A stretch of DNA of 64,000 bases from Promethearchaeota archaeon (GCA_048939765.1 JBHLPF010000009.1:1716-65715); one strand, 5' to 3'. Positions 34,561 to 48,160 are shown, counted from the stretch's first letter. Made by a program: numbers and translations. Notes: generated from the letters alone by a model not told the origin.

Positions 34561-35352
34561 TCATAGCAAAGCTGGAATCCCGAAGACAATTGCCAGTAGA
34601 GCTAGTATTAGGCATAACTTCCAAAAACTGACGTGTCGTGCCAATCTCAACAAGGTTTCCATTGATAGGAAACCGGTGATGAAGACAATGGCCTCCATGA
34701 AAACCAAATCTGCAAATCCGATTGAAGGAGGAATTGTATTTCCCGTGATTCCCTCAATGATGAGAATGCCAATCACAGCTGGCACACTCATTAGGAAGCT
34801 GAATCTCAGTGCAGATTCCCTGTCAACTTTTTGCATCAATAGAGCGGAAATAGTCACACCAGATCTACTGAGTCCCGGAAGTACAGAAAAGCCTTGAACC
34901 AGACCTGTCACTGTAGCCTCACGGTCTCCGGGTTCTTCAGTCTGAGGAGCTGGATCTGCAGCCTCTCGTGTGGGTAAGTATAGAGCAATAGCAGTCACCA
35001 GCAGCAAGCCTCCTACTAGTATGTTCATGATTTCTCCATGAATGATTGACAGACTCTGTTTGAGGAATAGATAGAGCGGGATAGCAGTAACAGTAGTGCT
35101 GATCGTAGCAATCAGTAGCAGTCTGAAGAGCATGCGGTCCTTTAGAGTCAAAATCTCGAAGACTACCCTGGGATAGCGTACCAAGACAGCAAGTGTTGTA
35201 CCGAGGTGCAGCCAAGCGACCAAGCTCACTATCTCGCCATGTGGAACAGATCCAATGTTGTACAAGAATAGCACAACTTGGCCCTCGCTGCTAATGGGCA
35301 ACCACTCAACCAAACCCTGGATTAGTGCTACAATGACCTGCCACATTTCCAT
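34561..35352 (-). CDS. uppP: Undecaprenyl-diphosphate phosphatase BacA/UppP
   Basis: QGLVEWLPISSEG, PGLSRSG.T, FSFLMS.PA. Confidence 0.92.
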   Translation of the reverse strand: MEMWQVIVALIQGLVEWLPISSEGQVVLFLYNIGSVPHGEIVSLVAWLHLGTTLAVLVRYPRVVFEILTLKDRMLFRLLLIATISTTVTAIPLYLFLKQSLSIIHGEIMNILVGGLLLVTAIALYLPTREAADPAPQTEEPGDREATVTGLVQGFSVLPGLSRSGVTISALLMQKVDRESALRFSFLMSVPAVIGILIIEGITGNTIPPSIGFADLVFMEAIVFITGFLSMETLLRLARHVSFWKLCLILALLAIVFGIPALL

Positions 35353-35442
35353 AAGATTGTCCGCTCTTGTCGGGCTTTGTACTAAACAATTAAAAGGCTA
35401 ACTCAAAGCCGAAAGCACACCTCAATAGCAGGATGCGAGATA

Positions 35443-36105
35443 ATGGTCTTGGACAATGGCAGATTCATGAGTTCTGAACTTGCACGACTCACTCAAATGT
35501 TCGAAGAGCACTTTCGATTGGCTTTGTCAGCAATTAAGATTGTCAGGAGTGCCATGATTGATTGGCTCGAGGAGAGTAAAGCCGTTGACCCGGAGGATTT
35601 GAAGAAGATTACTGAACTTGAGGAAAAGGGGGATGCCCTCAAGCGTGGCATCCTTGACGAGCTATCAAAAGCCAACTCTTTGATGCAGAGAGAAGACCTG
35701 CTACGTTTGGTTCATTACAATGACAAGCTAATTGATGGCGCTGAAATCGCCTGCTACCATCTTGCCGACGTCATCAACTCATGGACACCAGAAGGTGAAT
35801 TGAAGGAGAGCATTGCCGAGCTTGGAAGACTCGTCACGGAGGAGATTACGCAGCAGAGAGAGGCTGTCAGATTTCTCTCGATAAACATCGAGAACTCCAT
35901 AGAAAAAGCCAATGAGATCTGCAGACTCGAGAAGGAGATCGACATCGTGCAGAGAAAGATTGTGGCCCTAGTATATCCACTGAAGATAGAGTTGGCGATT
36001 CTCCTTAGATTTCGAGACTTCATCAATACCATGGAAGAGATTGCAAACTTAAGTGAAGATGCAGCTATTACAATCCGAGGTCTTTCACTGACACTAAACA
36101 CATGA
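35443..36105 (+). CDS. DUF47/PhoU-like phosphate transport regulator
   Basis: LEE.GD...R, REDL..L....D, LEKE.D, E.IAN..ED. Confidence 0.88.
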   Translation: MVLDNGRFMSSELARLTQMFEEHFRLALSAIKIVRSAMIDWLEESKAVDPEDLKKITELEEKGDALKRGILDELSKANSLMQREDLLRLVHYNDKLIDGAEIACYHLADVINSWTPEGELKESIAELGRLVTEEITQQREAVRFLSINIENSIEKANEICRLEKEIDIVQRKIVALVYPLKIELAILLRFRDFINTMEEIANLSEDAAITIRGLSLTLNT

Positions 36106-36111
36106 GAGCCG

Positions 36112-36684
36112 GTGCAACTATTGTCTGAGTCTGTTGAGATTGCTTCTGCTGAGTTGATAGGAGACAGAGCAATCGTCTGGAATCCGGACCATGGTATGGC
36201 TCTCTATTCTGAGGGGTATTTTGGCCAGCCTGTTGGCATAAGAAAACCAAAGTCCCCAGTCTTCGATAAGCCACTTGAACTCTCTCTAATTGAGTGTGCT
36301 TATCTCACCGATACAGGGCGCATTCAGGTCACCAGAACTCCAGGTAACCACGTGCTGACTCTGGATGAGATTCTTTCCTTGGGAGAGAAAATATCCTCTG
36401 ATTTTCGCGACAAGTATCTTGTGTATTCACAGGTTCGTCAGCTCGGTTACATTATTCGACCAGGGCTCAAGTTTGGAACAGACTTTGCAGTCTATGAGCA
36501 GGGGCCTGGAAAGGATCATGCACCATTTCTGATCCATGTGATTCCACAGAGAAAGGGAGTAGTTCCGCTAGATATCGTCAGAGCAGGACGGCTCGCATCA
36601 AGTGTTAGAAAGAAATTCATAATTGCCACAGTGAAGGAGAGCGGAGAGATTGCCTACTATAGCTTTGTCTGGCACCGCCCTTGA
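36112..36684 (+). CDS. endA: tRNA-splicing endonuclease (single-unit, catalytic)
   Basis: LSLIE..YL, GLKFG.DF.VY, H, RLA.SVRK (Tyr/His/Lys triad). Confidence 0.93.
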   Translation: MQLLSESVEIASAELIGDRAIVWNPDHGMALYSEGYFGQPVGIRKPKSPVFDKPLELSLIECAYLTDTGRIQVTRTPGNHVLTLDEILSLGEKISSDFRDKYLVYSQVRQLGYIIRPGLKFGTDFAVYEQGPGKDHAPFLIHVIPQRKGVVPLDIVRAGRLASSVRKKFIIATVKESGEIAYYSFVWHRP

Positions 36685-36762
36685 CAGATAAATGAGGAAA
36701 ACAAATAAGTGCCAAAAATAAACCGTTTGTCAACTCATCCAGTCCATGATGGTGATTTCTGA

Positions 36763-37080
36763 ATGGCAGATAAAGCTGAGAATGCAAAGACCTTCGGTGC
36801 ATTGCTTGCAAAGGCATGGGAACATACTCCCTCCTTCATCTGTAGCAATGAAGACTACATCTACATCATGTTTCCAGCTGATGAAACACAAGACAAGTGG
36901 GTTGAGGCTTCACTGACATTTCCTGATGGCTCTCTTGACACTCAGGAACATTCACCTAAGAAAGCACTAGCCCTTATTGTCGAGGAACTGAAAGTCTTAC
37001 CACAGTATGGTGCTGACACCATTGTTTCAACCAAAGGCAAGCTGGACGAAGCCGCCGCTCGCCTTGGAGAACTAGCATAG
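36763..37080 (+). CDS. Hypothetical protein
   Basis: 105-aa ORF, co-oriented, with a GGTGA Shine-Dalgarno-like element upstream. Confidence 0.65.
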   Translation: MADKAENAKTFGALLAKAWEHTPSFICSNEDYIYIMFPADETQDKWVEASLTFPDGSLDTQEHSPKKALALIVEELKVLPQYGADTIVSTKGKLDEAAARLGELA

Positions 37081-37139
37081 ATCGTTTTAGGGTCGAACAC
37101 AGAATACCAATTCACCTCTGCATAGGTCGGAGCAGGACG

Positions 37140-37931
37140 ATGTCTGACGAATATATTGAGTGTCCCTCGTGCAATTCTATCGTCCCTATCGGACGCTTCT
37201 GTAAATCCTGCGGAGAAAGCCTCATAGTTGCTCCTCCAGCAAAATCTCCGAAAGAACCATCTCCTGAACCCCCGGCACCGCTAATTCCAGAAGAAGACAT
37301 GCCAACTAATCTTCCTGAATTTGCGATCACTGTCCCAGAAATGGACAAACTTGCATTTACTAGAATAATGTCCAAAGCCGAACTCAGCGTCATTCAGAAG
37401 GATCTGGACCTCCTGATTAGGCAGATACAGTCCACTAGACAGGCACTTCAATTGCAGCATTCTGACAAGGCTCTCCTGACAGCCAGGGCTGAGCAGCTCA
37501 GAGCGGCTTTTGATAAAACAAAAGCCAGACGAGAGGAGTTATCCAGCGGTACTGGGAAGCTAGTTTTGGAGAAAATCCATGCTAGCTTCAAGGAGCACGA
37601 GGAGAAGCTTGCCAAACTAGATGCGGCGGAAGACTCGTTAGACTCCGCAATCTACAAAGAACAGCGTGAAAAGCTCATTGCGACTCTGAAGGCCTTGAAA
37701 AAGGAACTGAAGAATTCCATCAAGGTGGCAGAGAAATGGCACAAGGGCATGAAGGGGGCACGTCGTACCATAGAGAAGGACAGCAGTAGACTTGATGCCA
37801 AGTACAAAATGGGAGATATGTCTGCGAGTACGTATGATGACGCAAAAGCTAGAATCGAGAGGTCCCTCATGGTTCTTGAAGTGGCGAGAGGAATGCTGGG
37901 TGAGATCATAGAGAACGCAAAGAAGATGTGA
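37140..37931 (+). CDS. Zn-ribbon plus long coiled-coil protein (CdvA-like tail)
   Basis: CPSC...FCKSCG; Pro-rich linker; LDAKYKMGDMSASTYD motif. Confidence 0.7.
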   Translation: MSDEYIECPSCNSIVPIGRFCKSCGESLIVAPPAKSPKEPSPEPPAPLIPEEDMPTNLPEFAITVPEMDKLAFTRIMSKAELSVIQKDLDLLIRQIQSTRQALQLQHSDKALLTARAEQLRAAFDKTKARREELSSGTGKLVLEKIHASFKEHEEKLAKLDAAEDSLDSAIYKEQREKLIATLKALKKELKNSIKVAEKWHKGMKGARRTIEKDSSRLDAKYKMGDMSASTYDDAKARIERSLMVLEVARGMLGEIIENAKKM

Positions 37932-37963
37932 CTGACTGAACAGTTTCGAGGAGACTGAATGCA

Positions 37964-38284
37964 ATGGCTCTTAGTCTTTCAGATTGTACGGCGCAGTGCA
38001 AGAAGTTCAGGTGCGATCGCAAGCCAAGTGAACTAGAAATTCGTGGCAAAGGTGAGAAAAAGATCGTCTGGTGCACTTGGGTGGATGATGAGTGCGATGG
38101 TCCTTGGTGTATGTACGGCGTCTGCATTGATCACAGAATGACTACTGATGGAAAATGTAAAGGCTTCAGCAAGTCCCGGGCGCCGTTACTGGGCCCGGAT
38201 CAGATTGAAGACTATAGCAGTGAAATGGATGACGGTATACCAGAAAAGTTTCAGAAAGATATCAGCGGACGAAGAATGTCTTAG
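37964..38284 (+). CDS. Cys-rich hypothetical protein
   Basis: Eight Cys: C..QCKKFRC, WC.W..DEC.G..C.Y..C...C. Confidence 0.7.
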   Translation: MALSLSDCTAQCKKFRCDRKPSELEIRGKGEKKIVWCTWVDDECDGPWCMYGVCIDHRMTTDGKCKGFSKSRAPLLGPDQIEDYSSEMDDGIPEKFQKDISGRRMS

Positions 38285-38362
38285 CAAACCACATCTGATG
38301 CGGTGCCCCGTAATGTCTATAAGCAACACGGAAACCATCGCACTCAGCGAAGGTGAATCGGA

Positions 38363-38488
38363 TTGTTTGATGAAGTTCGTCCAGAAATGAGAGCACTGAT
38401 CTATCTCATGATTGGACTATCCATGCTAGGTATAGGGATTATTCTGGGTCAGGCTGCCTTCGCAATCGGCTTCCTGGGGCCACCTTGA
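38363..38488 (+). CDS. 41-aa single-TM micro-protein (absent from the ORF track)
   Basis: MFDEVRPEMRALIYLMIGLSMLGIGIILGQAAFAIGFLGPP; AGGTGA six nt before TTG. Confidence 0.5.
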   Translation: MFDEVRPEMRALIYLMIGLSMLGIGIILGQAAFAIGFLGPP

Positions 38489-38516
38489 TTCGTCGATTTT
38501 GCATGAGTGATTCCTC

Positions 38517-39518
38517 TTGACAGAGCTTGAGGATATCATACAAATCTTGAATGAATTCGAGGGTATCTCTCGCAAGTATGTCCTGCCCGCCATAATAGGG
38601 AAACTCAGATCTGCATCGTTCAATGGAACACAAGAGCATGGACTTGGTGAGGACTCTGCTGCGATTAGTACCAGCAGCGATGATGTCGTTCTTCTAACCA
38701 CAGATGCAATTGTAGAGGAGTTATGTCTGCACCACCCCCATGCGGCGGGCTTTAATGCAGTCTTGGCAACTGTGATGGACATCTATGCGGCTGGAGGTAC
38801 TCCAACATCCTTTGCAGTTGCTCTTTCGTACTCGGATGATAAGATAGGCGAGCAGCTACTAGAGGGCTTAATTGATGGCTCTCAGTCATTTAGAGTTCCC
38901 ATCGTACGAGGGCACACGAGTCCACAATCACGTCTGACTTATGTTGTTGGATCTGCCACTGGAACTGTTCGCAAGGAGCATCTTCTGACCGCAGGAGGAG
39001 CGGAATCCGGGGATGCTCTAGTCCTCCTCTTTGATAAGGTTGGGCAAAGAGGAGCAAGCTACAGACTTGGTTGGGACTCGGTGACTGGACACAGTTCCGA
39101 GTATGTCGTGAAGAGATTAACAGTGATGAACGAGCTGGCAGGCGAAAACCTGCTAAATGCCTCAAAAGACATATCCGTCGCTGGACTAGTAGGTACTGCA
39201 GGAATGATGCTAGAGTACTCAGGAAAGGGCGGCATCATTGATATTGATGCTGTAGATATGACACGCCCTCAAAGCATAGGACTGACTGACTGGATTCGTA
39301 TGTACATATCGCTAGGGTTTCTAGTAGCTGCGTCAGAATCGAATCTGAAACGTATCGTGAAGATTGCAGAAGCACACGATATGACGGCTACCAAGATTGG
39401 AAGTGTTGACGATAGCACATCGCTTCGGTTGCGACTCGCCTCTGAAGTGCGAATTATGTTTGACTATTCCAAGGGTCCCCTGTTGATTCCAAAGGTCGGC
39501 ACCAATGATATCTCCTAG
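38517..39518 (+). CDS. AIR synthase (PurM-fold) related protein
   Basis: GEDSAAI, D.YA.GG.P, GGHT-like RGHT, KDIS.AG..GT. Confidence 0.85.
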   Translation: MTELEDIIQILNEFEGISRKYVLPAIIGKLRSASFNGTQEHGLGEDSAAISTSSDDVVLLTTDAIVEELCLHHPHAAGFNAVLATVMDIYAAGGTPTSFAVALSYSDDKIGEQLLEGLIDGSQSFRVPIVRGHTSPQSRLTYVVGSATGTVRKEHLLTAGGAESGDALVLLFDKVGQRGASYRLGWDSVTGHSSEYVVKRLTVMNELAGENLLNASKDISVAGLVGTAGMMLEYSGKGGIIDIDAVDMTRPQSIGLTDWIRMYISLGFLVAASESNLKRIVKIAEAHDMTATKIGSVDDSTSLRLRLASEVRIMFDYSKGPLLIPKVGTNDIS

Positions 39519-39561
39519 TCCGTCATAGTTATAATGCATACTTGTCCGACTTGCGGATGAA

Positions 39562-39789
39562 GTGAGGAACTTGTCGACAACAAAGAAGACCTGCAGTATT
39601 GCAGGCTGCAATAAACCCTACAAGAGGTCCTTTGCCACAGTACGGATAACCGAGAGTATAGCCAAGTCCGGTCTGAGGGTGAAGGATGCTCGGTCGCGCA
39701 AGACTTACCTCTGCTCAGATCATTGGAAGCAGGTAAAGAAAGCCTTCAAGAAGGATACAAAACCTGAGCGGATGCGATGGGGTCACTAA
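39562..39789 (+). CDS. Small basic putative Zn-binding protein
   Basis: CSIAGC...YLCSDH; Lys/Arg-rich. Confidence 0.7.
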   Translation: MRNLSTTKKTCSIAGCNKPYKRSFATVRITESIAKSGLRVKDARSRKTYLCSDHWKQVKKAFKKDTKPERMRWGH

Positions 39790-39839
39790 CAATTGTCTTA
39801 TCAGCATGTGCTCACTAATATTCGCAAGGTATCAAAGAA

Positions 39840-40199
39840 ATGAGCGCCGAAGAGGATGCTTTCTCAAGACTAAGTCCCAGCTGGAAGTTGTGGCTTGAGT
39901 ACAAGGGTGAATATGTATTTGGTCCGGGAGCCTATGCTATTCTGAAGAGCATTCAGGAGAAGGGAACCATAACCGCCGGAGCGAAGGCCCTAGGTATGTC
40001 ATATCGCTATGCATGGGGTGTAGTGAGAAAGATTGAGCAGACACTTGGAGTGAAGCTCTTGGAAACCTTCAAAGGAGGTACTGAGGGCGGCGGAGGCGCA
40101 AGAATAACTGATTTTGGGACCAAGCTAATGGCGCTTTTTGCAAGTGTTCAAGAGAGTTTTGAGCAAGTGAGTAGTGAAGAAGACCGTCGTCGTTCATGA
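39840..40199 (+). CDS. modE: ModE-family winged-helix regulator
   Basis: GTITAGAKALGMSYRYAWG, GG..GGGA.IT.FG. Confidence 0.88.
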   Translation: MSAEEDAFSRLSPSWKLWLEYKGEYVFGPGAYAILKSIQEKGTITAGAKALGMSYRYAWGVVRKIEQTLGVKLLETFKGGTEGGGGARITDFGTKLMALFASVQESFEQVSSEEDRRRS

Positions 40200-41255
40200 G
40201 AATCTAAGGACAATAGCCTTGTTTGGACAGTGGCTTTTGCAATCCAGGCACAATATACAGTCCGCTGAGTGCATATGCTGGTACGGGAACCTACGTATTC
40301 TGATGTTCATTGGGCATACTACTTCACAGACGTTGCATGTGTCAGGAGTACATCGTGCTGGATTCCTTCCGATACTGAACAATGCCGCCCTTGAGAATAC
40401 ACCGTAGAGCCAACCAGCGGGACAAATCCATCTACAGAACCACCTCGGTACCCAGAAGCTGACAATGACGACTAAGGCGACAAATGCAAACTGGACCAAG
40501 AACCATCCCCATTGTGTCACATACCAGAGTGTTTCAAGACTTGTTGGCCAGCTCTGATGCGTGAACTCTATGAAAATTATGTATGCTGGATTCACTGGAT
40601 TAAACGCATCACTTGCAAAGACGCCTAGAATATCCACCAATGCCTCTTCATTCCCAAGAACCGTGCTGATTCCAACCCAAGCAGCCAAGAAACCTACGAT
40701 GACAAAGATGTACATCTTTATTCGACGGAGTTCTCTCTCAGTTCCGGGTGCTGGACGCACTTTGTTTCTATTTGGTAAAGATGCAAAGTCCTGAATGGTC
40801 CCTATAGGGCAGATCCATCCACATGCAGATCGTCCTAGAACGGTCAATACGATTATCATTGCACCAAGCGTGAAGAATGGGAAGAATCCGGTAGTCAATT
40901 CCAGCTGGAGTGTGTCAAAGCTACCTGCTAGAACAGAAAATGCGCCTTCTAATGGAGAAAGAATCGGAATAGCGGGCAAAATGTCACGAAAACCTTGCCA
41001 GAAGGCTATGACTTGGTCTCCACCAAACCATGCCGCAAAAAGGTAGACGTTGATTCCTATGAAGAATAGAATCTGTACAACTCTTCTCAGCATTCTCGTG
41101 TTAAGAATAAGACCCAGAGGATTCTTCAGACTGACTCTTGGAAGCCTATCGATCTCATGTTGTTCTTCAGTTGTTTCCTCCTCAGCAATCTCATCCAGCT
41201 CGATCTGCTCATCGTCGTCAGGCATGTCATCAGTCCTTTCGGAATCCTCCGCCAT
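40194..41255 (-). CDS. Membrane 4Fe-4S binding protein (NapH/MauN/NosR-like)
   Basis: GRSACGWICP.G, RWFCRWICPAG, C..C..VCPM, CILCLDC...CP. Confidence 0.88.
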   Translation of the reverse strand: MAEDSERTDDMPDDDEQIELDEIAEEETTEEQHEIDRLPRVSLKNPLGLILNTRMLRRVVQILFFIGINVYLFAAWFGGDQVIAFWQGFRDILPAIPILSPLEGAFSVLAGSFDTLQLELTTGFFPFFTLGAMIIVLTVLGRSACGWICPIGTIQDFASLPNRNKVRPAPGTERELRRIKMYIFVIVGFLAAWVGISTVLGNEEALVDILGVFASDAFNPVNPAYIIFIEFTHQSWPTSLETLWYVTQWGWFLVQFAFVALVVIVSFWVPRWFCRWICPAGWLYGVFSRAALFSIGRNPARCTPDTCNVCEVVCPMNIRIRRFPYQHMHSADCILCLDCKSHCPNKAIVLRFS

Positions 41256-41341: not shown

Positions 41342-41752
41342 CTATATCGCTGGTATGAATGATATGTGTATATCGCTCGCAATCAACTGAATCACTAGAG
41401 AATATGCGCCTGCTTCCGAGGGCGGTTGCAGCACAATTGAGTGTCCATATGTTTCGCCCCAATACTGAGAGGGGACTCCGAGTTTCTCAAACGCAACAGT
41501 GAGATTTCCGCCGCTGGATGTGACTGACACACCATCTGGTACATTGATCTCAAACGACGTACTGTTCACAGTCCCGTTGTCCACCCTTTCTATCAGATTG
41601 TGCAGCCTTTCAGCGAAGTGTTCTGCCATCTCCAACTGTGACGCATTGCCAAGCGTATCTATAGTATATAGAAGAACCGGGACTCCAATAATGACCGCCG
41701 TGCTCAACCCAATGGCGATGAGAATCATTTTCTCGAGAGACCTTGATACCAT
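41342..41752 (-). CDS. Signal-anchored hypothetical protein (pilin-like N-terminus)
   Basis: MVSRS-LEKMILIAIG.. hydrophobic helix followed by a beta-rich domain. Confidence 0.6.
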   Translation of the reverse strand: MVSRSLEKMILIAIGLSTAVIIGVPVLLYTIDTLGNASQLEMAEHFAERLHNLIERVDNGTVNSTSFEINVPDGVSVTSSGGNLTVAFEKLGVPSQYWGETYGHSIVLQPPSEAGAYSLVIQLIASDIHISFIPAI

Positions 41753-41854
41753 GTTTCTTTGTTCAGCAATCTACCCAATAAACGGCCCGCTCGATTGTGA
41801 GTGTCACCGAAGGCTTTAAGCTGTTATGAACATCATGAACGTGGCTGCCATACT

Positions 41855-43258
41855 ATGAAGAAAATGGTTCCAATCCACATTGGGCTTGTAGGTCATATAG
41901 ATCATGGAAAGACCGAGCTCGCACGGGCACTCAGTGAGAAGGTGTCAACAGCTGGTCTTGACAAGCATCCACAAGCCAAAGAGAGGGGCATCACAATAGA
42001 CCTCGGGTTCACTATGTTCACCTTAGGTGATTTCCTAGTTACACTTGTTGACGCGCCAGGGCATGCTGATCTCATTAGAAGTGTTGTAGCTAGTGCGGCC
42101 ATTATCGATGCCGCCATTTTGGTGGTTGCTGCTGACGAAGGCGCACAGATACAGACTGGAGAGCATATTGTTGTGCTCAAGTCGATGGGAATTGAGAATA
42201 TACTTGTAGCAATCACAAAGACTGACACAGTTGATGCAATTCGGTTAGATGCTGTGGTACGGCAGATGAAGGACATCATCGCGGGTGCTCAAATCTCTAA
42301 TGTCGACTATGTAACGGTTTCCTCGAAAACTGGTGAAGGTTTGGACAAGCTAAGGGACATTCTACTCAACAGGCTTGAACCCCAGAAGCGACAAAAGGAT
42401 GGGCCCTTTCTGATGCCTATCGACCACGCATTCACTGTGAAGGGCCATGGCACAGTAGTCACAGGTACAGTACTACGTGGTACTCTGAGCGCCGGTGAAA
42501 CAGTCCAGCTATCACCCCAGGGCAATTCCTCACGAGTCAGGTCTATACAGACATTTGGTGAAGAGAGGACCGAAGCCAGCGCGGGAGATCGCGTGGGGCT
42601 GAATGTTCCAGACATTGACCATAGGGTAGTTAAACGCGGCAATTATCTTGCGAAACCTAGCACAATGCATCATTCTAGGCATATCATTGTGAGCTTGGGG
42701 AGAAATGGACTCTACAAGGGTAGGGTCTCAAAGGGGTTGATCCTAAGTGCTACCGTGGGCATGCCAACAGTGACAGCCGAGCTGATTCCGCTTCTAGGTG
42801 ACACCAATATGATGCTGGAGGAGACAACTGAGTTGTCATTCAAGGCAGCCCTCGTGTTTCAGGAGGACATTCCAGTAGAGATTGGGACTCGAGTTCTCTT
42901 GATGCGCACGGATCTGCCTCCCACGCATATGCGCATCATGGGTTCTGGCGAGGTGATCGAGATTCCTGAGAATCTTGTTCTGAAGCGGAGCATTCGTAGA
43001 ACTGGTCATGTGAGCAGGATTCGCGAAGACGATGTTCTAGTGGAGGGACTGGCATCAAGCAAAGAGATTGCAGAGTCATTATCTGGTTTACATGTACAAA
43101 CACCAAGAGGAATCAAGGGAACCCTTAAGCAGCCTTTTGGAACACGAGGTGTTGTATCAGTCAAGTTTGAGAGTCCCGTTGAGGACTCAGAAGAGGTAAT
43201 CTATGAACGATTCGTTGAGGAGGAGATGGCCTTTGGATATAGACGAAAAGTTGGCTGA
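41855..43258 (+). CDS. selB: Selenocysteine-specific elongation factor SelB
   Basis: GHIDHGKT, ERGITIDLGF, DAPGH, TKTD; C-terminal extra domain; Sec cluster context. Confidence 0.92.
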   Translation: MKKMVPIHIGLVGHIDHGKTELARALSEKVSTAGLDKHPQAKERGITIDLGFTMFTLGDFLVTLVDAPGHADLIRSVVASAAIIDAAILVVAADEGAQIQTGEHIVVLKSMGIENILVAITKTDTVDAIRLDAVVRQMKDIIAGAQISNVDYVTVSSKTGEGLDKLRDILLNRLEPQKRQKDGPFLMPIDHAFTVKGHGTVVTGTVLRGTLSAGETVQLSPQGNSSRVRSIQTFGEERTEASAGDRVGLNVPDIDHRVVKRGNYLAKPSTMHHSRHIIVSLGRNGLYKGRVSKGLILSATVGMPTVTAELIPLLGDTNMMLEETTELSFKAALVFQEDIPVEIGTRVLLMRTDLPPTHMRIMGSGEVIEIPENLVLKRSIRRTGHVSRIREDDVLVEGLASSKEIAESLSGLHVQTPRGIKGTLKQPFGTRGVVSVKFESPVEDSEEVIYERFVEEEMAFGYRRKVG

Positions 43259-44543
43259 GCTCATTCCAAAAAGAATGGCCGAGCGAGGTCGCATCACTAT
43301 GGACTCGCTTCTTGCTCCAATCAAAGACATTTTGAACAGACGACGGTTTCCTGAGAAATCTCTAGCAGATGACCAAATCGAGCTGATGTTTCGTCTATTA
43401 TCTTCCATGGATACAGACAAAGACCCTGCCGCAGCACGAGTAGGGGAACGAGAGGCGCGAGTAGCATCACCATATATTTCGCGGCTTGCAGCTGGATTCA
43501 ATCATGGCATTGGACGTGGTGGCCGCGTCACAGCACCACAGCCCAAGGCTCCTGGTGCCTCCTTAATGCAGCAGCTTGCAAACACAGTGGCCCTTGATGC
43601 GATGAAGAGCCTTGGCCTTCCAAATGTGAGAGCTGGAATTGTGCTGCCTTTAGCCACCGGCATGACCATTGGTCTCGTCTTGAGCGCTCTTAGAAGCGAA
43701 TACTCCTTTGATACAGTATTGCATCCCCGGTTAGACCATTCGTCACCAATAAAAGGCGTTGCTTTGACTGGCCTTGACATGGTGACCACCCCAACTGTCT
43801 TGGAGGGAGATGCAGTACGTGCTGACTTGACCAAGCTAGAAGAAGAGGTATCAAAGAGGAAATCGTGTGCAATTCTTGCGACTACGACATTCTTTCCACC
43901 GAGGGAGTCAGATCCAGTGAAGGATCTATCTCGACTCTGTAGCGATGAAGACATTCCACTTGTCATCAACAATGCATATGGGGTTCAGTCCGAGGCAGTC
44001 ATGGCTCGTCTGCAATCCGCCATTGATGCTGGACGAGTAGATGCAATAGTACAGAGTAGCGACAAGAACTTCCTGTCGCCGGTCGGTGCATCAATCCTAG
44101 TATCACCGAGGGAGGAAACGGTAGAGAAAGCTGCTGAGAGCTACGCAGGTAGGGCTTCTGCAGCTCCTGTGGCTCAGACATTGGCAGCTCTTCTTGCACT
44201 TGGTCTTGAGAGATACCGGACTCTGAGAGAGGAGCAGCTTAAGAACAAGCACCTTCTTGATGCAAAGCTAGCCGAGATTGCTGGGTCCATTGGCCAACGT
44301 GTCCTCTCAGTTGAGAATCCAGTCGCTTCAGCAATGACACTGGACGGTCTGGACGCCAAAGATCTTGGTGGCAGGCTCTATAATCTCCGAGTTACTGGCC
44401 CTAGGGCTATTCCTAAAGGTGCATTCGGATCATGTATAGACAACTATCCACACAGTTATCTTGTCATGAATGCAGCCATAGGATCTTCTAGGAGTGACAT
44501 AGAGAATGCTACTACGAAACTCTTTAAGGAGGTCAGTGGCTAG
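43233..44543 (+). CDS. spcS: O-phosphoseryl-tRNA(Sec) selenium transferase (SepSecS)
   Basis: SMDTDK, VGEREAR, HGIGR.G....QPKAPG, INNAYG, QSSDKNFL.PVG; likely TTG start after a GAGGAG Shine-Dalgarno (ORF from 43203). Confidence 0.95.
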   Translation: MDIDEKLAELIPKRMAERGRITMDSLLAPIKDILNRRRFPEKSLADDQIELMFRLLSSMDTDKDPAAARVGEREARVASPYISRLAAGFNHGIGRGGRVTAPQPKAPGASLMQQLANTVALDAMKSLGLPNVRAGIVLPLATGMTIGLVLSALRSEYSFDTVLHPRLDHSSPIKGVALTGLDMVTTPTVLEGDAVRADLTKLEEEVSKRKSCAILATTTFFPPRESDPVKDLSRLCSDEDIPLVINNAYGVQSEAVMARLQSAIDAGRVDAIVQSSDKNFLSPVGASILVSPREETVEKAAESYAGRASAAPVAQTLAALLALGLERYRTLREEQLKNKHLLDAKLAEIAGSIGQRVLSVENPVASAMTLDGLDAKDLGGRLYNLRVTGPRAIPKGAFGSCIDNYPHSYLVMNAAIGSSRSDIENATTKLFKEVSG

Positions 44544-44572
44544 CTCATAGCTGGCCTGAGGGAGGGCTAGCC

Positions 44573-45217
44573 TTGGAAGAAATCGGCGACAAGATCGAGA
44601 TTAGCAAGACCATCAGCTACGATATGCCAGATTCATCAGTTGTGTTTCGACTTGCTTGGTATGTAGTTGCATCGAAGCCTGGCGTTCTCCTGAACGAATA
44701 CAGCGAGGCTGAAAGCCAGATATACAAGGGAAAGGCCATCTTCTCATCGAAAGAAGCCAATGCCGACGTGCGCATCTGGGTTGAAGAAGCACAGAGATCG
44801 GTGGAGATAACTGGTTGGGGTACTGAACAAGACCAGCTTGAAGAGTATCTCAATGAAGTTGCTGCATCAGTGGAGTCCTCAGTGGGCAAGTATCAGTCTC
44901 TCTCAGATGAAGAGAAAGGGAAGCTTCGGCGTGCTCTTGTTGCAAAGACATGTTGGGACAAGATTGTTTTCGAGATTCTCAATAAGGCTCCTGCCGGTAC
45001 TGTCTATTTCCAGCTGGCTCACGGTCGGGAGATGATAATCAAGGCTACTGAGGGTGAGGACATACATGCCCTGCCTTTGACTACGTCGGGTTGGCTTACC
45101 AGAATCGAGGGTATGCCTAGGGATGAGGCGCTGCCGAGTAGTATAGCCATGGAACTGGCTAAGAAGAGTGTAGAGTGGAAGAAGGAAACGCAGGACATCA
45201 TTGCTCGCTACATTTGA
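44573..45217 (+). CDS. Hypothetical protein within the Sec cluster
   Basis: 214-aa ORF; GGAGG Shine-Dalgarno-like element; co-oriented between SepSecS and tRNA-Sec. Confidence 0.75.
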   Translation: MEEIGDKIEISKTISYDMPDSSVVFRLAWYVVASKPGVLLNEYSEAESQIYKGKAIFSSKEANADVRIWVEEAQRSVEITGWGTEQDQLEEYLNEVAASVESSVGKYQSLSDEEKGKLRRALVAKTCWDKIVFEILNKAPAGTVYFQLAHGREMIIKATEGEDIHALPLTTSGWLTRIEGMPRDEALPSSIAMELAKKSVEWKKETQDIIARYI

Positions 45218-45265
45218 ATGTCTAACCTCTAAGCTTAAGTCCAAGGCGCCTTCTGAGAAAGACGT

Positions 45266-45356
45266 GGCCTCCTACAGGGTCGGTGGTCCGGCTCCATGGG
45301 CTTCAAACCCATGATCGTGCAAGCGATGAGAGTTCGATTCTCTTTGGAGGCCGCCA
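45266..45356 (+). tRNA. selC: tRNA-Sec (anticodon UCA at 45303-45305), 9/4 fold, CCA encoded
   Basis: Acceptor GGCCTCCTA/TTGGAGGCC; D stem GGGTCGG-TGGT-CCGGCTC; anticodon arm CATGGG-CTTCAAA-CCCATG; variable arm ATCGT-GCAA-GCGAT; T arm AGAG-TTCGATT-CTCT; G73 then CCA. Confidence 0.95.
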
Positions 45357-45481
45357 AATCATAGTCGCTTTCTTGCCTCTCTTTTCTGATTACCGAGTAG
45401 GTGATTGGACCAAAACAATATCGCAAGGAGGTCTGCTTCTCCTCCTCGATGAAGAAGGTGTCTTCGTCAGAGATCATTGGC

Positions 45482-46249
45482 TCAACTATCCCTTGCTCTC
45501 GATTCTAGCTCCTTCAATATGTTTTCAAGCCGTTGTTCAGTTTCTAGTGGAGAGAGACCCTGCTTCTTTGCCAGTGTAAGAAGCCTTCTTCTCTCCCTGA
45601 AGACAAATGGATTCTTCCTCATAGATGGATTCTCGTCCAGGAACTGCTTCACAACCTGCCTTGTGATGGCATCCAACAGGTCACTCATCGACTTGTGGGG
45701 TGAACGAGTCACACTAGAGAAGGCACCAAGATTGTCCAATCTCTCAACTATCTCTCGTCCGGATTCGTTAGGGTCGTCCTCCATGAGGTTGTAAGTCGCA
45801 ATTGGCTTATCCCAGGCATATTTCGAACCAGGGACATCAAACTTCTCGGCTATCTTCTCTATCACACCATCTGGTACAGGCCTCTCTCTTTTCATATTCC
45901 ATTGAATGGCGTCTTCAAGTGGAGTTGAAACGTGAACAACTGCAAAAGCGGTTTTGCTCTGCTCCGCAATTGCAAGGAGTTCATGCCTCATACTTGCATA
46001 GTAATTTGTGTCGTCATGGATTACGGATATGCCCCCTTGAAGTAGTCTGCGCGTGTTTTCAAGAGCCTCCTTTCTAACTTCATGTTCCTTTTCTGGCCTG
46101 AAATCTGAGTAGAACTCCTCATCGCGCCAACGATCAGTGCTTACAATCTCCACCTTGGTTACGTTCATGAGCTGATCCTTGATGGCTTTGGCTAGAGTTG
46201 TTTTTCCAGATGATGGGATTCCGCAAAGTGCGAGTAGGAATCGCTCCAT
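45482..46249 (-). CDS. pstK: L-seryl-tRNA(Sec) kinase PSTK
   Basis: LCGIPSSGKTT, VSTD, DDTNYY.SMR, N..R...VP, YAWD.P; adjacent to tRNA-Sec. Confidence 0.92.
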   Translation of the reverse strand: MERFLLALCGIPSSGKTTLAKAIKDQLMNVTKVEIVSTDRWRDEEFYSDFRPEKEHEVRKEALENTRRLLQGGISVIHDDTNYYASMRHELLAIAEQSKTAFAVVHVSTPLEDAIQWNMKRERPVPDGVIEKIAEKFDVPGSKYAWDKPIATYNLMEDDPNESGREIVERLDNLGAFSSVTRSPHKSMSDLLDAITRQVVKQFLDENPSMRKNPFVFRERRRLLTLAKKQGLSPLETEQRLENILKELESRARDS

Positions 46250-47590: not shown

Positions 47591-48160
47591 TCACTCTAGG
47601 CAGTACCATTCTTTGACAGATGTTTCGGGAATGATGTGGATGTTGTCGTAGTATGTGTGGTCAGTTTCCTCGACTATTGTCTTCGAGAGTGCAATCTTGA
47701 ACAGACCATCGCTCTTTCCAAGGAGATACCCTGCCAGATACTTGAGAGGCACATGTTGTTTATCGGCTTCCTCCTTGGTCATGGCGCAACACTCGACTCC
47801 TGGACTTTCATAGACCACTTCTACCATGTCGTGTGAATTACAGGCCTCCATGCGATTCAAGAACTTGGTTTCGTTCTTTATTCGTTCCATTCCGCTAATT
47901 CTCTCAGTCATGGACGCGTCATAGTGGAAGGGCTCATCCATCAGTCGGTGAATTGATGGAACCATAAAGAGAGTCTTGTCCTCCTCAGAGGCTATGTCAT
48001 CCTTTCCTCCATCGACATAGCGTATGTCACTGCTCTCTCCGACCTTGTATCGGATCCAGTAGCGCTTGGCATCAGCCTTCTTGTCTTTATCTTCCTTCTT
48101 GATGTTCACCATTACATCCTCTTCTAGGACCAATGGCTGAAACGGGTTTTTCGTAACCAA
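47591..48160 (-). CDS. Hypothetical protein
   Basis: 189-aa ORF; TTG start preceded by GGAGGA. Confidence 0.7.
   Translation of the reverse strand: MVTKNPFQPLVLEEDVMVNIKKEDKDKKADAKRYWIRYKVGESSDIRYVDGGKDDIASEEDKTLFMVPSIHRLMDEPFHYDASMTERISGMERIKNETKFLNRMEACNSHDMVEVVYESPGVECCAMTKEEADKQHVPLKYLAGYLLGKSDGLFKIALSKTIVEETDHTYYDNIHIIPETSVKEWYCLE

Follow-up and report, generated by a model that had tools for sequence, protein, structure and literature searches.

An Intact Selenocysteine Gene Cluster in a Thorarchaeial Genome and Sel_Asgard, a Probable Accessory Adaptor Retained beyond Selenocysteine Use

The Selenocysteine Locus

We examined a window of 64,000 nucleotides from the genome of a Promethearchaeota (Asgard) archaeon of the Thorarchaeia (GCA_048939765.1 JBHLPF010000009.1:1716-65715; positions are counted from its first letter), in which five elements of the selenocysteine (Sec) system lie within 4.4 kb (41855-46249): the elongation factor aSelB, an overlapping gene for SepSecS, an open reading frame (ORF) of 214 residues, the tRNA-Sec, and a convergent gene for the kinase PSTK. 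All of them lie where the original prediction, made by a model from the DNA, had placed them, and the identities it proposed for selB, SepSecS, tRNA-Sec, and pstK were confirmed by profile, structure-family, and covariance-model matches (table 1). The locus is very probably the chromosomal and intact Sec gene set of this genome, following the archaeal/eukaryal route, in which an ordinary Sec operon is accompanied by a nondedicated adaptor, Sel_Asgard, encoded by the 214-residue ORF. The GC content hardly varies over the region (0.46-0.50), and the cluster is therefore no compositional island.

Table 1. Positions of the Sec elements, of SelD, and of neighboring genes (window coordinates unless a contig is given)
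Feature	Position	Strand	Matches and remarks
aSelB/EFSec	41855..43258	+	TIGR00475, PF21440, 4AC9
SepSecS (SpcS), O-phosphoseryl-tRNA(Sec) selenium transferase	43203..44543	+	TIGR03531, PF05889, 2Z67
Sel_Asgard, 214 residues, Asgard-only	44573..45217	+	NF045535, 230.6 bits; putative function
tRNA-Sec, anticodon UCA	45266..45356 (body to 45352, then encoded GCCA)	+	ARAGORN, Rfam RF01852
PSTK, P-loop kinase of 255 residues (O-phosphoseryl-tRNA(Sec) kinase)	45482..46249	-	PF08433, 3ADB/3A4L
SelD	G000:C87:36248-37054	-	210 bits for a cut-off of 125; a single TGA in frame
zn75, basic C2CH zinc-finger protein of 75 residues	39562..39789	+	Conserved neighbor of Sel_Asgard; Sec membership putative
AIR-synthase-like protein	38517-39518	+	
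ModE-type N-terminal helix-turn-helix (HTH), stand-alone	39840-40199	+	TIGR00637, 78.7 bits, below cut-off (98.5)
orf136	41342-41752	-	No family match
orf189	47591-48160	-	No family match

aSelB is an EF-Tu-type GTPase that scores 285 bits against TIGR00475 (cut-off 242) and contains domain III of archaeal SelB (aSelB_III). Its residues 11-470 align over the full length with the SelB of Methanococcus maripaludis (4AC9, E 1e-89), as expected of an archaeal-type four-domain Sec elongation factor, and human eEFSec matches its N-terminal GTPase part only. The longest ORF starts further upstream, at a GTG (41801..43258, + strand); the true start is probably the ATG at 41855, as in the original prediction, because homologs align from residue 19-23 onward. 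SepSecS scores as a member of its family of pyridoxal phosphate (PLP) enzymes (TIGR03531, 437 bits for a cut-off of 225; PF05889, 3.9e-110; 2Z67, E 1.6e-109), and its SSDKN motif is conserved in comparison with 2Z67. The lysine of this motif, Lys288 here and K278 when numbered as in M. maripaludis, we take to be the PLP lysine.

The tRNA gene, called SeC(tca) by ARAGORN, scores 59.9 bits against the Sec covariance model (gathering score 47) and thus passes the check that had been proposed for it. Its acceptor stem of 9 bp (with one U.U pair) and T stem of 4 bp form a 13-bp helix in the 9/4 arrangement, its D stem is extended to 7 bp and closed by a 4-nt loop, and its anticodon stem has 6 bp; the variable arm is long, the discriminator G and the CCA are encoded, and the folding z-score is -3.9.

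The genes are tightly packed. selB and spcS overlap by 56 nt in different frames, Sel_Asgard follows spcS after 29 nt, and tRNA-Sec follows Sel_Asgard after 48 nt. Shine-Dalgarno-like motifs precede both downstream starts, GAGGT 7-11 nt before the ATG of spcS and GGGAGGG before the TTG of Sel_Asgard, and the three protein genes look like a single translationally coupled transcript.

SelD and Use of Selenocysteine

SelD, which the original prediction had rightly placed outside the window, is encoded on another contig of the same genome. The TGA that interrupts its reading frame stands at the active-site position (motif HGUSCK), so that SelD is itself a selenoprotein, and for this reason we consider the Sec system to be in use. 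From the established functions of these families, the pathway can be laid out as follows: SerRS would charge tRNA-Sec with serine, PSTK would phosphorylate the Ser-tRNA(Sec), SepSecS would convert the O-phosphoseryl (Sep)-tRNA(Sec) into Sec-tRNA(Sec) with selenophosphate provided by SelD, and aSelB would deliver the Sec-tRNA(Sec) to UGA codons. The original prediction noted that archaea and eukaryotes have the PSTK/SepSecS route in common and that Sec systems have been described in Loki- and Thorarchaeota; the Sec machinery of Asgard archaea is indeed published (PMC4989117; PMC11227280).

The AIR-synthase-like gene of the window was considered as a cryptic SelD and rejected, as it reaches 53 bits on the SelD model (cut-off 125). 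This member of the AIR-synthase superfamily is closer to the methanogenesis-marker-2 and sll0787 families and stays under all curated cut-offs. In two other families of Asgard genomes (f4 and f16; genomes G002 and G117) such a gene lies directly after Sel_Asgard; it is not Sec-specific, because it is encoded elsewhere in the Sec-less genomes of Hermodarchaeia.

Sel_Asgard: Sequence Family and Predicted Fold

The ORF between spcS and tRNA-Sec had been listed as unknown. It is a real gene of 214 residues, but it is already catalogued: it matches the NCBIfam equivalog NF045535, Sel_Asgard, over model positions 3-194 of 195 and above the cut-off of 132 bits, and close relatives already carry the NCBI label "Sel_Asgard, putative selenocysteine system protein." Pfam scans of the ORF and of 40 family members detected no domain, and neither the single sequence nor the profile gave a significant match to a PDB sequence. 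The family is tiny: a profile search among 1.84 billion representatives retrieved 29 clusters, in which the full-length matches are stand-alone proteins of about 210-236 residues, the others being shorter fragments, and no informative fusion was seen.

An AlphaFold2 model built with 40 homologs is confident (pLDDT 91.7, pTM 0.88). It consists of a beta-alpha-beta4 TBP-like N-domain (residues 8-83) followed by a five-helix bundle resembling the C-terminal domain of Vps28 (Vps28-C; residues 86-211). In Foldseek searches, the bundle superposed on 2J9W, the C-terminal domain of Vps28 (probability 1.0, TM-score of 0.70 for the target, root mean square deviation 2.8-3.3 A), and the N-domain matched TBP-like folds, namely, RnlA NTD/NRD, phosphoglucomutase domain 4, AlkA-N, and the AP2 beta2 appendage. 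A link at the sequence level comes from proteins of 630-800 residues in Loki-like genomes, whose last ~195 residues are matched by NF045535. One of them (L050 1486-3381, - strand, G149:C1) is composed of PCI/winged-helix repeats, an Ig-like segment, and a tail similar to Sel_Asgard, which scores 25.5 bits with Pfam VPS28 (cut-off 24.5) and 41 bits with NF045535; hhalign aligned the Sel_Asgard profile with this tail over 202 columns (probability 90%, E 1.4e-6). As far as the model can tell, Sel_Asgard looks like a minimal, stand-alone TBP + Vps28-C version of the Asgard PCI/Ig/Vps28-C module and not like a Vps28 ortholog; it lies outside the VPS28 family (PF03997), the similarity being structural and transitive. 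The PCI/winged-helix repeats of L050 and of two similar loci (L051 and L052) also match E3_UFM1_ligase and DDRGK.

Only F25, D129, R152, and E153 are invariant across the phylum, Y145 and K203 being nearly so, and no catalytic-looking residue is conserved at this depth. A selenium relay via Cys127 was examined and discarded: Cys127 and His150 are invariant only among close homologs (at least 49% identity), a set dominated by relatives of the present genome, and not phylum-wide. The small number of invariant residues and the lack of conservation of Cys127 favor a scaffold over an enzyme or a Cys-based selenium carrier. Close homologs also share a basic helix, LAKKSxEWKKET. Taken with the model, the pattern of invariant residues suggests that Sel_Asgard is most likely a nonenzymatic protein-protein adaptor.

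Gene Order around Sel_Asgard

We compared gene order by mapping the proteins of the window onto 20-kb regions around Sel_Asgard from 32 genomes. Within the family of the present genome (hereafter the Thor family), the order is DUF47-EndA-o37140-AIRS-like-zn75-ModE-type HTH-NapH-like Fer4(-)-orf136(-)-SelB-SepSecS-SelAsg-tRNA-Sec-PSTK(-)-TFB(-), where AIRS-like denotes the AIR-synthase-like gene and SelAsg denotes Sel_Asgard. The part from SelB to TFB is complete in eight loci from six genera; five more loci of the family are cut off by a contig end or, in the case of genus g13, have neither tRNA-Sec nor PSTK close by. The compact order is thus a trait of the Thor-family lineage and not a peculiarity of one genome. 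Outside the family, f4 and f16 have SelB-SepSecS-SelAsg-AIRS-like, the Loki-like f22 has tRNA-Sec-SepSecS-SelAsg with SelB several kb off on the other strand and PSTK elsewhere, and in f21 SepSecS-SelAsg alone remains.

What persists throughout is the SepSecS-Sel_Asgard junction. In 100 of the 101 genomes for which both positions are listed (seven from the Thor family and 94 from other families, mostly f22), the gene immediately upstream of Sel_Asgard and on its strand is SepSecS, and a median of 225 nt separates the hidden Markov model matches. Families that share this junction have Sel_Asgard proteins only 17-25% identical, and SelB, PSTK, and tRNA-Sec move around it.

A second conserved feature is zn75, annotated as "hypothetical protein" in all sources, with four invariant residues, C11, C16, C51, and H54 (C-x4-C...C-x2-H). 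In Hermodarchaeia it adjoins the Sel_Asgard homolog, in convergent orientation, at all 15 of the 15 loci gathered with a single Hermodarchaeial query. In f28, f29, and f6 it lies directly beside Sel_Asgard in the same direction, with gaps of 37-90 nt, and in the Thor family, f16, and f22 it lies 1.7-6 kb away. This makes zn75 the most constant neighbor of Sel_Asgard across Asgard classes, Sec-less ones included. In its AlphaFold2 model (pLDDT 83), a long basic helix accompanies a small zinc-finger core; no fold match is significant, the best being to the SAP30/SAP30L zinc finger (E 0.17-0.25), and Pfam returned a weak THAP match (E 0.047). Both genes belong to a deeper block, BacA-DUF47/PhoU-like-EndA...NapH-like polyferredoxin-zn75-Sel_Asgard (window 34561-41255; loci L058-L062 and L092-L106), common to Thorarchaeia, the Sec-less Hermodarchaeia, and an Odin-like family, which represents an unusually deep conservation of gene order.

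Among the other neighbors, the stand-alone ModE-type HTH gene between zn75 and the NapH-like gene keeps its position across the Thor family. The cluster is flanked by orf136, whose N-terminal hydrophobic segment looks pilin-like, and by orf189, conserved across the Thor family; neither was found near Sec genes outside this family.

Sel_Asgard without Sec and Sec without Sel_Asgard

In a search of 400 Asgard genomes, 233 encode both Sel_Asgard and SepSecS, 48 Sel_Asgard only, 10 SepSecS only, and 109 neither, which corresponds to a co-occurrence odds ratio of 53, uncorrected for phylogeny. No Sel_Asgard match was found in 14 control genomes, including that of Methanocaldococcus jannaschii. Among the exceptions, all 19 sampled genomes of Hermodarchaeia (f14) encode a Sel_Asgard homolog and none encodes SepSecS, and f28, the Odin-like f29, f6, and f2 likewise keep Sel_Asgard without SepSecS. 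The matches have E-values from 1e-32 to 1e-47 in Hermodarchaeia, f28, and f29, and NF045535 scores of 141-157 bits, above the cut-off, in four Sec-less genomes (G100 and G108 from f14, G299, and G304). Checked representatives of the Sec-less families that keep Sel_Asgard have no Sec-type SelD and no PSTK. In a small tree, Sel_Asgard sequences follow taxonomy, Sec-less lineages are intermingled with Sec-using ones, and there is no separate clade of Sec-less paralogs. The median dN/dS in Hermodarchaeia is 0.055, at a high dS of about 1.7.

Loss of Sec can also be followed within the Thor family. In a congener of the present species (G371, 92% complete), the locus reads TFB, Sel_Asgard, 26 residues left over from the C terminus of SepSecS, and orf136 (L083 8800-11200, G371:C1): SelB, SepSecS, tRNA-Sec, and PSTK have been excised around an intact Sel_Asgard, and there is no selD. 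This Sel_Asgard keeps every motif invariant in the Thor family and shows no rate acceleration. In another relative, G396 (L084 6000-8800, G396:C161), a fusion remnant of SelB (residues 19-119) and SepSecS (residues 325-445) and a 59-residue PSTK stub are left, tRNA-Sec is gone, Sel_Asgard is intact, and a TGA-containing selD still stands elsewhere in the genome. The two genomes represent two natural stages of Sec loss, half-way and clean.

The converse situation is found in f30, where SepSecS is present in five of five genomes and Sel_Asgard in none; in G308, the only one of them that was checked for it, a Sec-type SelD was confirmed. Sel_Asgard is thus not required wherever Sec is used, and its own maintenance does not require Sec. 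The original prediction expected physical clustering to make guilt by association informative; the junction with SepSecS is real, but the argument is weaker than assumed, because Sel_Asgard persists without Sec, under purifying selection in Hermodarchaeia, where this was measured, and a Sec-using family does without it. Retention of Sel_Asgard is not accounted for by the SepRS/SepCysS pathway, a candidate that we rejected: SepRS is present in f28, f29, f30, and f16, yet Sel_Asgard is also kept in Hermodarchaeia, f6, f2, and the Thor genomes, all of which lack SepRS.

Alternative Interpretations

Two assignments had to be weighed, that of the kinase and that of Sel_Asgard. A possibility raised at the outset was that the kinase, instead of being PSTK, is an Elongator cofactor of the KTI12 type. 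KTI12 is indeed the name of the Pfam family that it matches best (PF08433, 129 bits), and its score with the archaeal PSTK equivalog TIGR03574 (126.5 bits) is below the curated cut-off of 290.5. PF08433, however, covers PSTK as well as KTI12, and the solved relatives found are PSTKs alone: the best, from M. jannaschii (3ADB/3A4L, E 7e-27), align across both domains including the C-terminal one, and no KTI12 chain matches at E <= 0.001 in the structure-sequence search. The protein thus combines a P-loop kinase with the C-terminal tRNA-binding domain of PSTK, an assignment made from such matches. It is moreover the sole PF08433 gene in a genome of 3.37 Mb, it stands beside tRNA-Sec, and it was deleted or truncated along with selB, spcS, and tRNA-Sec in G371 and G396. 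A KTI12 would be present independently of the Sec trait, whereas strong, near-full-length matches to this kinase family occur in seven of seven Sec-using and in none of eight Sec-less genomes (n = 15). Solved relatives, single copy, joint loss with the Sec genes, and this distribution settle the kinase as PSTK, and we consider a KTI12 identity extremely improbable.

For Sel_Asgard, one could imagine a dedicated and essential Sec-decoding factor, the missing counterpart of SBP2 or an escort similar to SECp43, that couples the eukaryote-like Sec insertion sequence (SECIS) elements of Asgard archaea to aSelB. SBP2 is absent from Asgard archaea (PMC4989117; PMC11227280), and such a role would agree with the almost universal adjacency to SepSecS, the strong co-occurrence of the two genes, and the basic helix of Sel_Asgard. 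The phyletic pattern already strains this idea: whole lineages have kept Sel_Asgard without SepSecS, SelD, and PSTK, and, in Hermodarchaeia, under the selection described above; in G371, the Sec genes were cut out from around a gene that did not accelerate; and f30 uses SepSecS without Sel_Asgard. In addition, SBP2 is defined by an L7Ae-type RNA-binding domain, and Pfam detects neither this nor any other RNA-binding domain in Sel_Asgard, whose predicted fold is different. We therefore regard a dedicated decoding factor as improbable. At the other extreme, Sel_Asgard might be unrelated to Sec and lie next to SepSecS merely as inherited order in an old synteny block. The syntenic block that runs from BacA to Sel_Asgard in Thorarchaeia as well as in Sec-less Hermodarchaeia and the Odin-like family, the persistence of the gene after Sec loss, and a fold class otherwise tied to ESCRT (endosomal sorting) and adaptin-like proteins all speak for it. 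Chance synteny, however, seldom lasts at a divergence of 17-25% identity, at which the SepSecS-Sel_Asgard junction is the one adjacency to survive while SelB, PSTK, and tRNA-Sec shift, and the short spacer and Shine-Dalgarno-like motif fit cotranslation from one mRNA. A complete lack of connection with Sec is for us rather unlikely, if less easily dismissed.

Our interpretation, an ordinary Sec operon with a nondedicated adaptor, has to face several unfavorable points in addition to the low equivalog score of PSTK. With Rfam models, applied to the selD locus only and comprising no Asgard-specific SECIS models, no SECIS was found downstream of selD. The common transcript is predicted from gene spacing, and any binding of Sel_Asgard to SepSecS, tRNA-Sec, SelB, or zn75 is putative. 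On the structural side, Foldseek gave local matches and no whole-chain match at E <= 0.001, Pfam VPS28 missed Sel_Asgard both in 40 members at E <= 10 and in a genome-wide scan, and the link with Vps28-C would depend on transitive homology, four-helix bundles being generic.

Sel_Asgard as an Accessory Adaptor

The fold assignment, the linkage with zn75, and the survival of the gene beyond the Sec system lead us to propose that Sel_Asgard is probably an accessory adaptor, as opposed to a factor dedicated to Sec. In Sec-using lineages, it would be coexpressed with SepSecS and would probably assist the Sec machinery; a second, Sec-independent role, possibly exerted with zn75, would maintain selection after Sec loss. 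As eukaryotic Vps28-C contacts ESCRT-II via a zinc finger (PMC10936438), a contact between Sel_Asgard and zn75 is an attractive hypothesis. One may go further and imagine, by analogy with this contact, which joins ESCRT-I to ESCRT-II, that the two proteins form an Asgard-specific adaptor pair. In Sec users it would bring SepSecS, and possibly also PSTK or aSelB, into a complex for channeling tRNA-Sec, and it would serve a Sec-independent client as well, a scheme that we offer as speculation and ourselves find unlikely. If true, the pair would be a structurally new functional analog of SECp43 or SepCysE, and its second client would explain retention in Hermodarchaeia and Odin-like lineages.

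These results have consequences for annotation. The name "putative selenocysteine system protein" now propagates through databases, yet the family is kept in whole Sec-less Asgard classes, under strong purifying selection in Hermodarchaeia, and is missing from one Sec-using family, which advises caution in taking Sel_Asgard as a marker of the Sec trait. The search for its function is also narrowed, to an adaptor between proteins, for which SepSecS and zn75 are candidate partners, and away from an enzyme or an SBP2-type RNA binder.

Comparison with Known Systems

The cluster belongs to an already documented type, the Asgard/Thorarchaeial Sec locus. Full Sec machinery without SBP2 was described in Lokiarchaeota (Mariotti et al. 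2016, PMC4989117), and in a survey that covered over 400 Asgard genomes, 77% of Thorarchaeia were Sec users (Huang et al. 2024, PMC11227280). The present genome shares all five components with these systems (tRNA-Sec, PSTK, SepSecS, EFSec/aSelB, and a Sec-containing SelD) and follows the PSTK/SepSecS route as they do. In the original Lokiarchaeum assembly, the machinery is on separate contigs, save EFsec and tRNAsec, about 6 kb apart (PMC4989117), whereas four machinery genes and Sel_Asgard are gathered here within 4.4 kb. The cluster is therefore another well-resolved Thorarchaeial example, mainly useful as a clean reference locus.

From gene neighborhoods, Huang et al. (2024, Discussion) singled out a hypothetical protein, restricted to Asgard archaea, whose gene is often close to secS, efSec, and pstk (PMC11227280). 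This protein (MBD3157761.1) is likely a member of the NF045535 family, its accession not being among the cluster members that we looked up. The name of NF045535 implies a role in Sec, but the model also scores above its cut-off in Sec-less genomes.

The best solved relatives of the machinery come from Methanococcales (PSTK of M. jannaschii, 3ADB; SepSecS and SelB of M. maripaludis, 2Z67 and 4AC9), with full-length alignments, and the tRNA-Sec of these archaea likewise combines a 9/4 fold with a long D stem. The present PSTK is too divergent for the equivalog cut-off of TIGR03574, trained on Methanococcales. Genes examined around the Sec machinery of Methanococcales and Methanopyrus were not found near Asgard Sec genes (PMC11227280).

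The closest parallel for Sel_Asgard itself lies outside Sec systems. Asgard genomes encode multidomain proteins that combine Vps28-C with an adaptin appendage (Ig + TBP), often with PCI/HTH domains, and that have been read as interaction hubs (Makarova et al. 2024, PMC10936438). Sel_Asgard has no steadiness box, no Ig or longin domain, and lies outside any ESCRT locus; it also persists in Hermodarchaeia, reported to be without ESCRT families (PMC10936438). Neither its fold assignment nor its linkage with zn75 was found in the published work on Asgard Sec or Vps28-C proteins compared here. Like the adaptin-appendage/Vps28-C proteins, to whose tail it is homologous, Sel_Asgard has a TBP-like N-domain followed by a Vps28-C-like bundle, and it appears to be built from modules that are used in the ESCRT and adaptin-like proteins of Asgard archaea.

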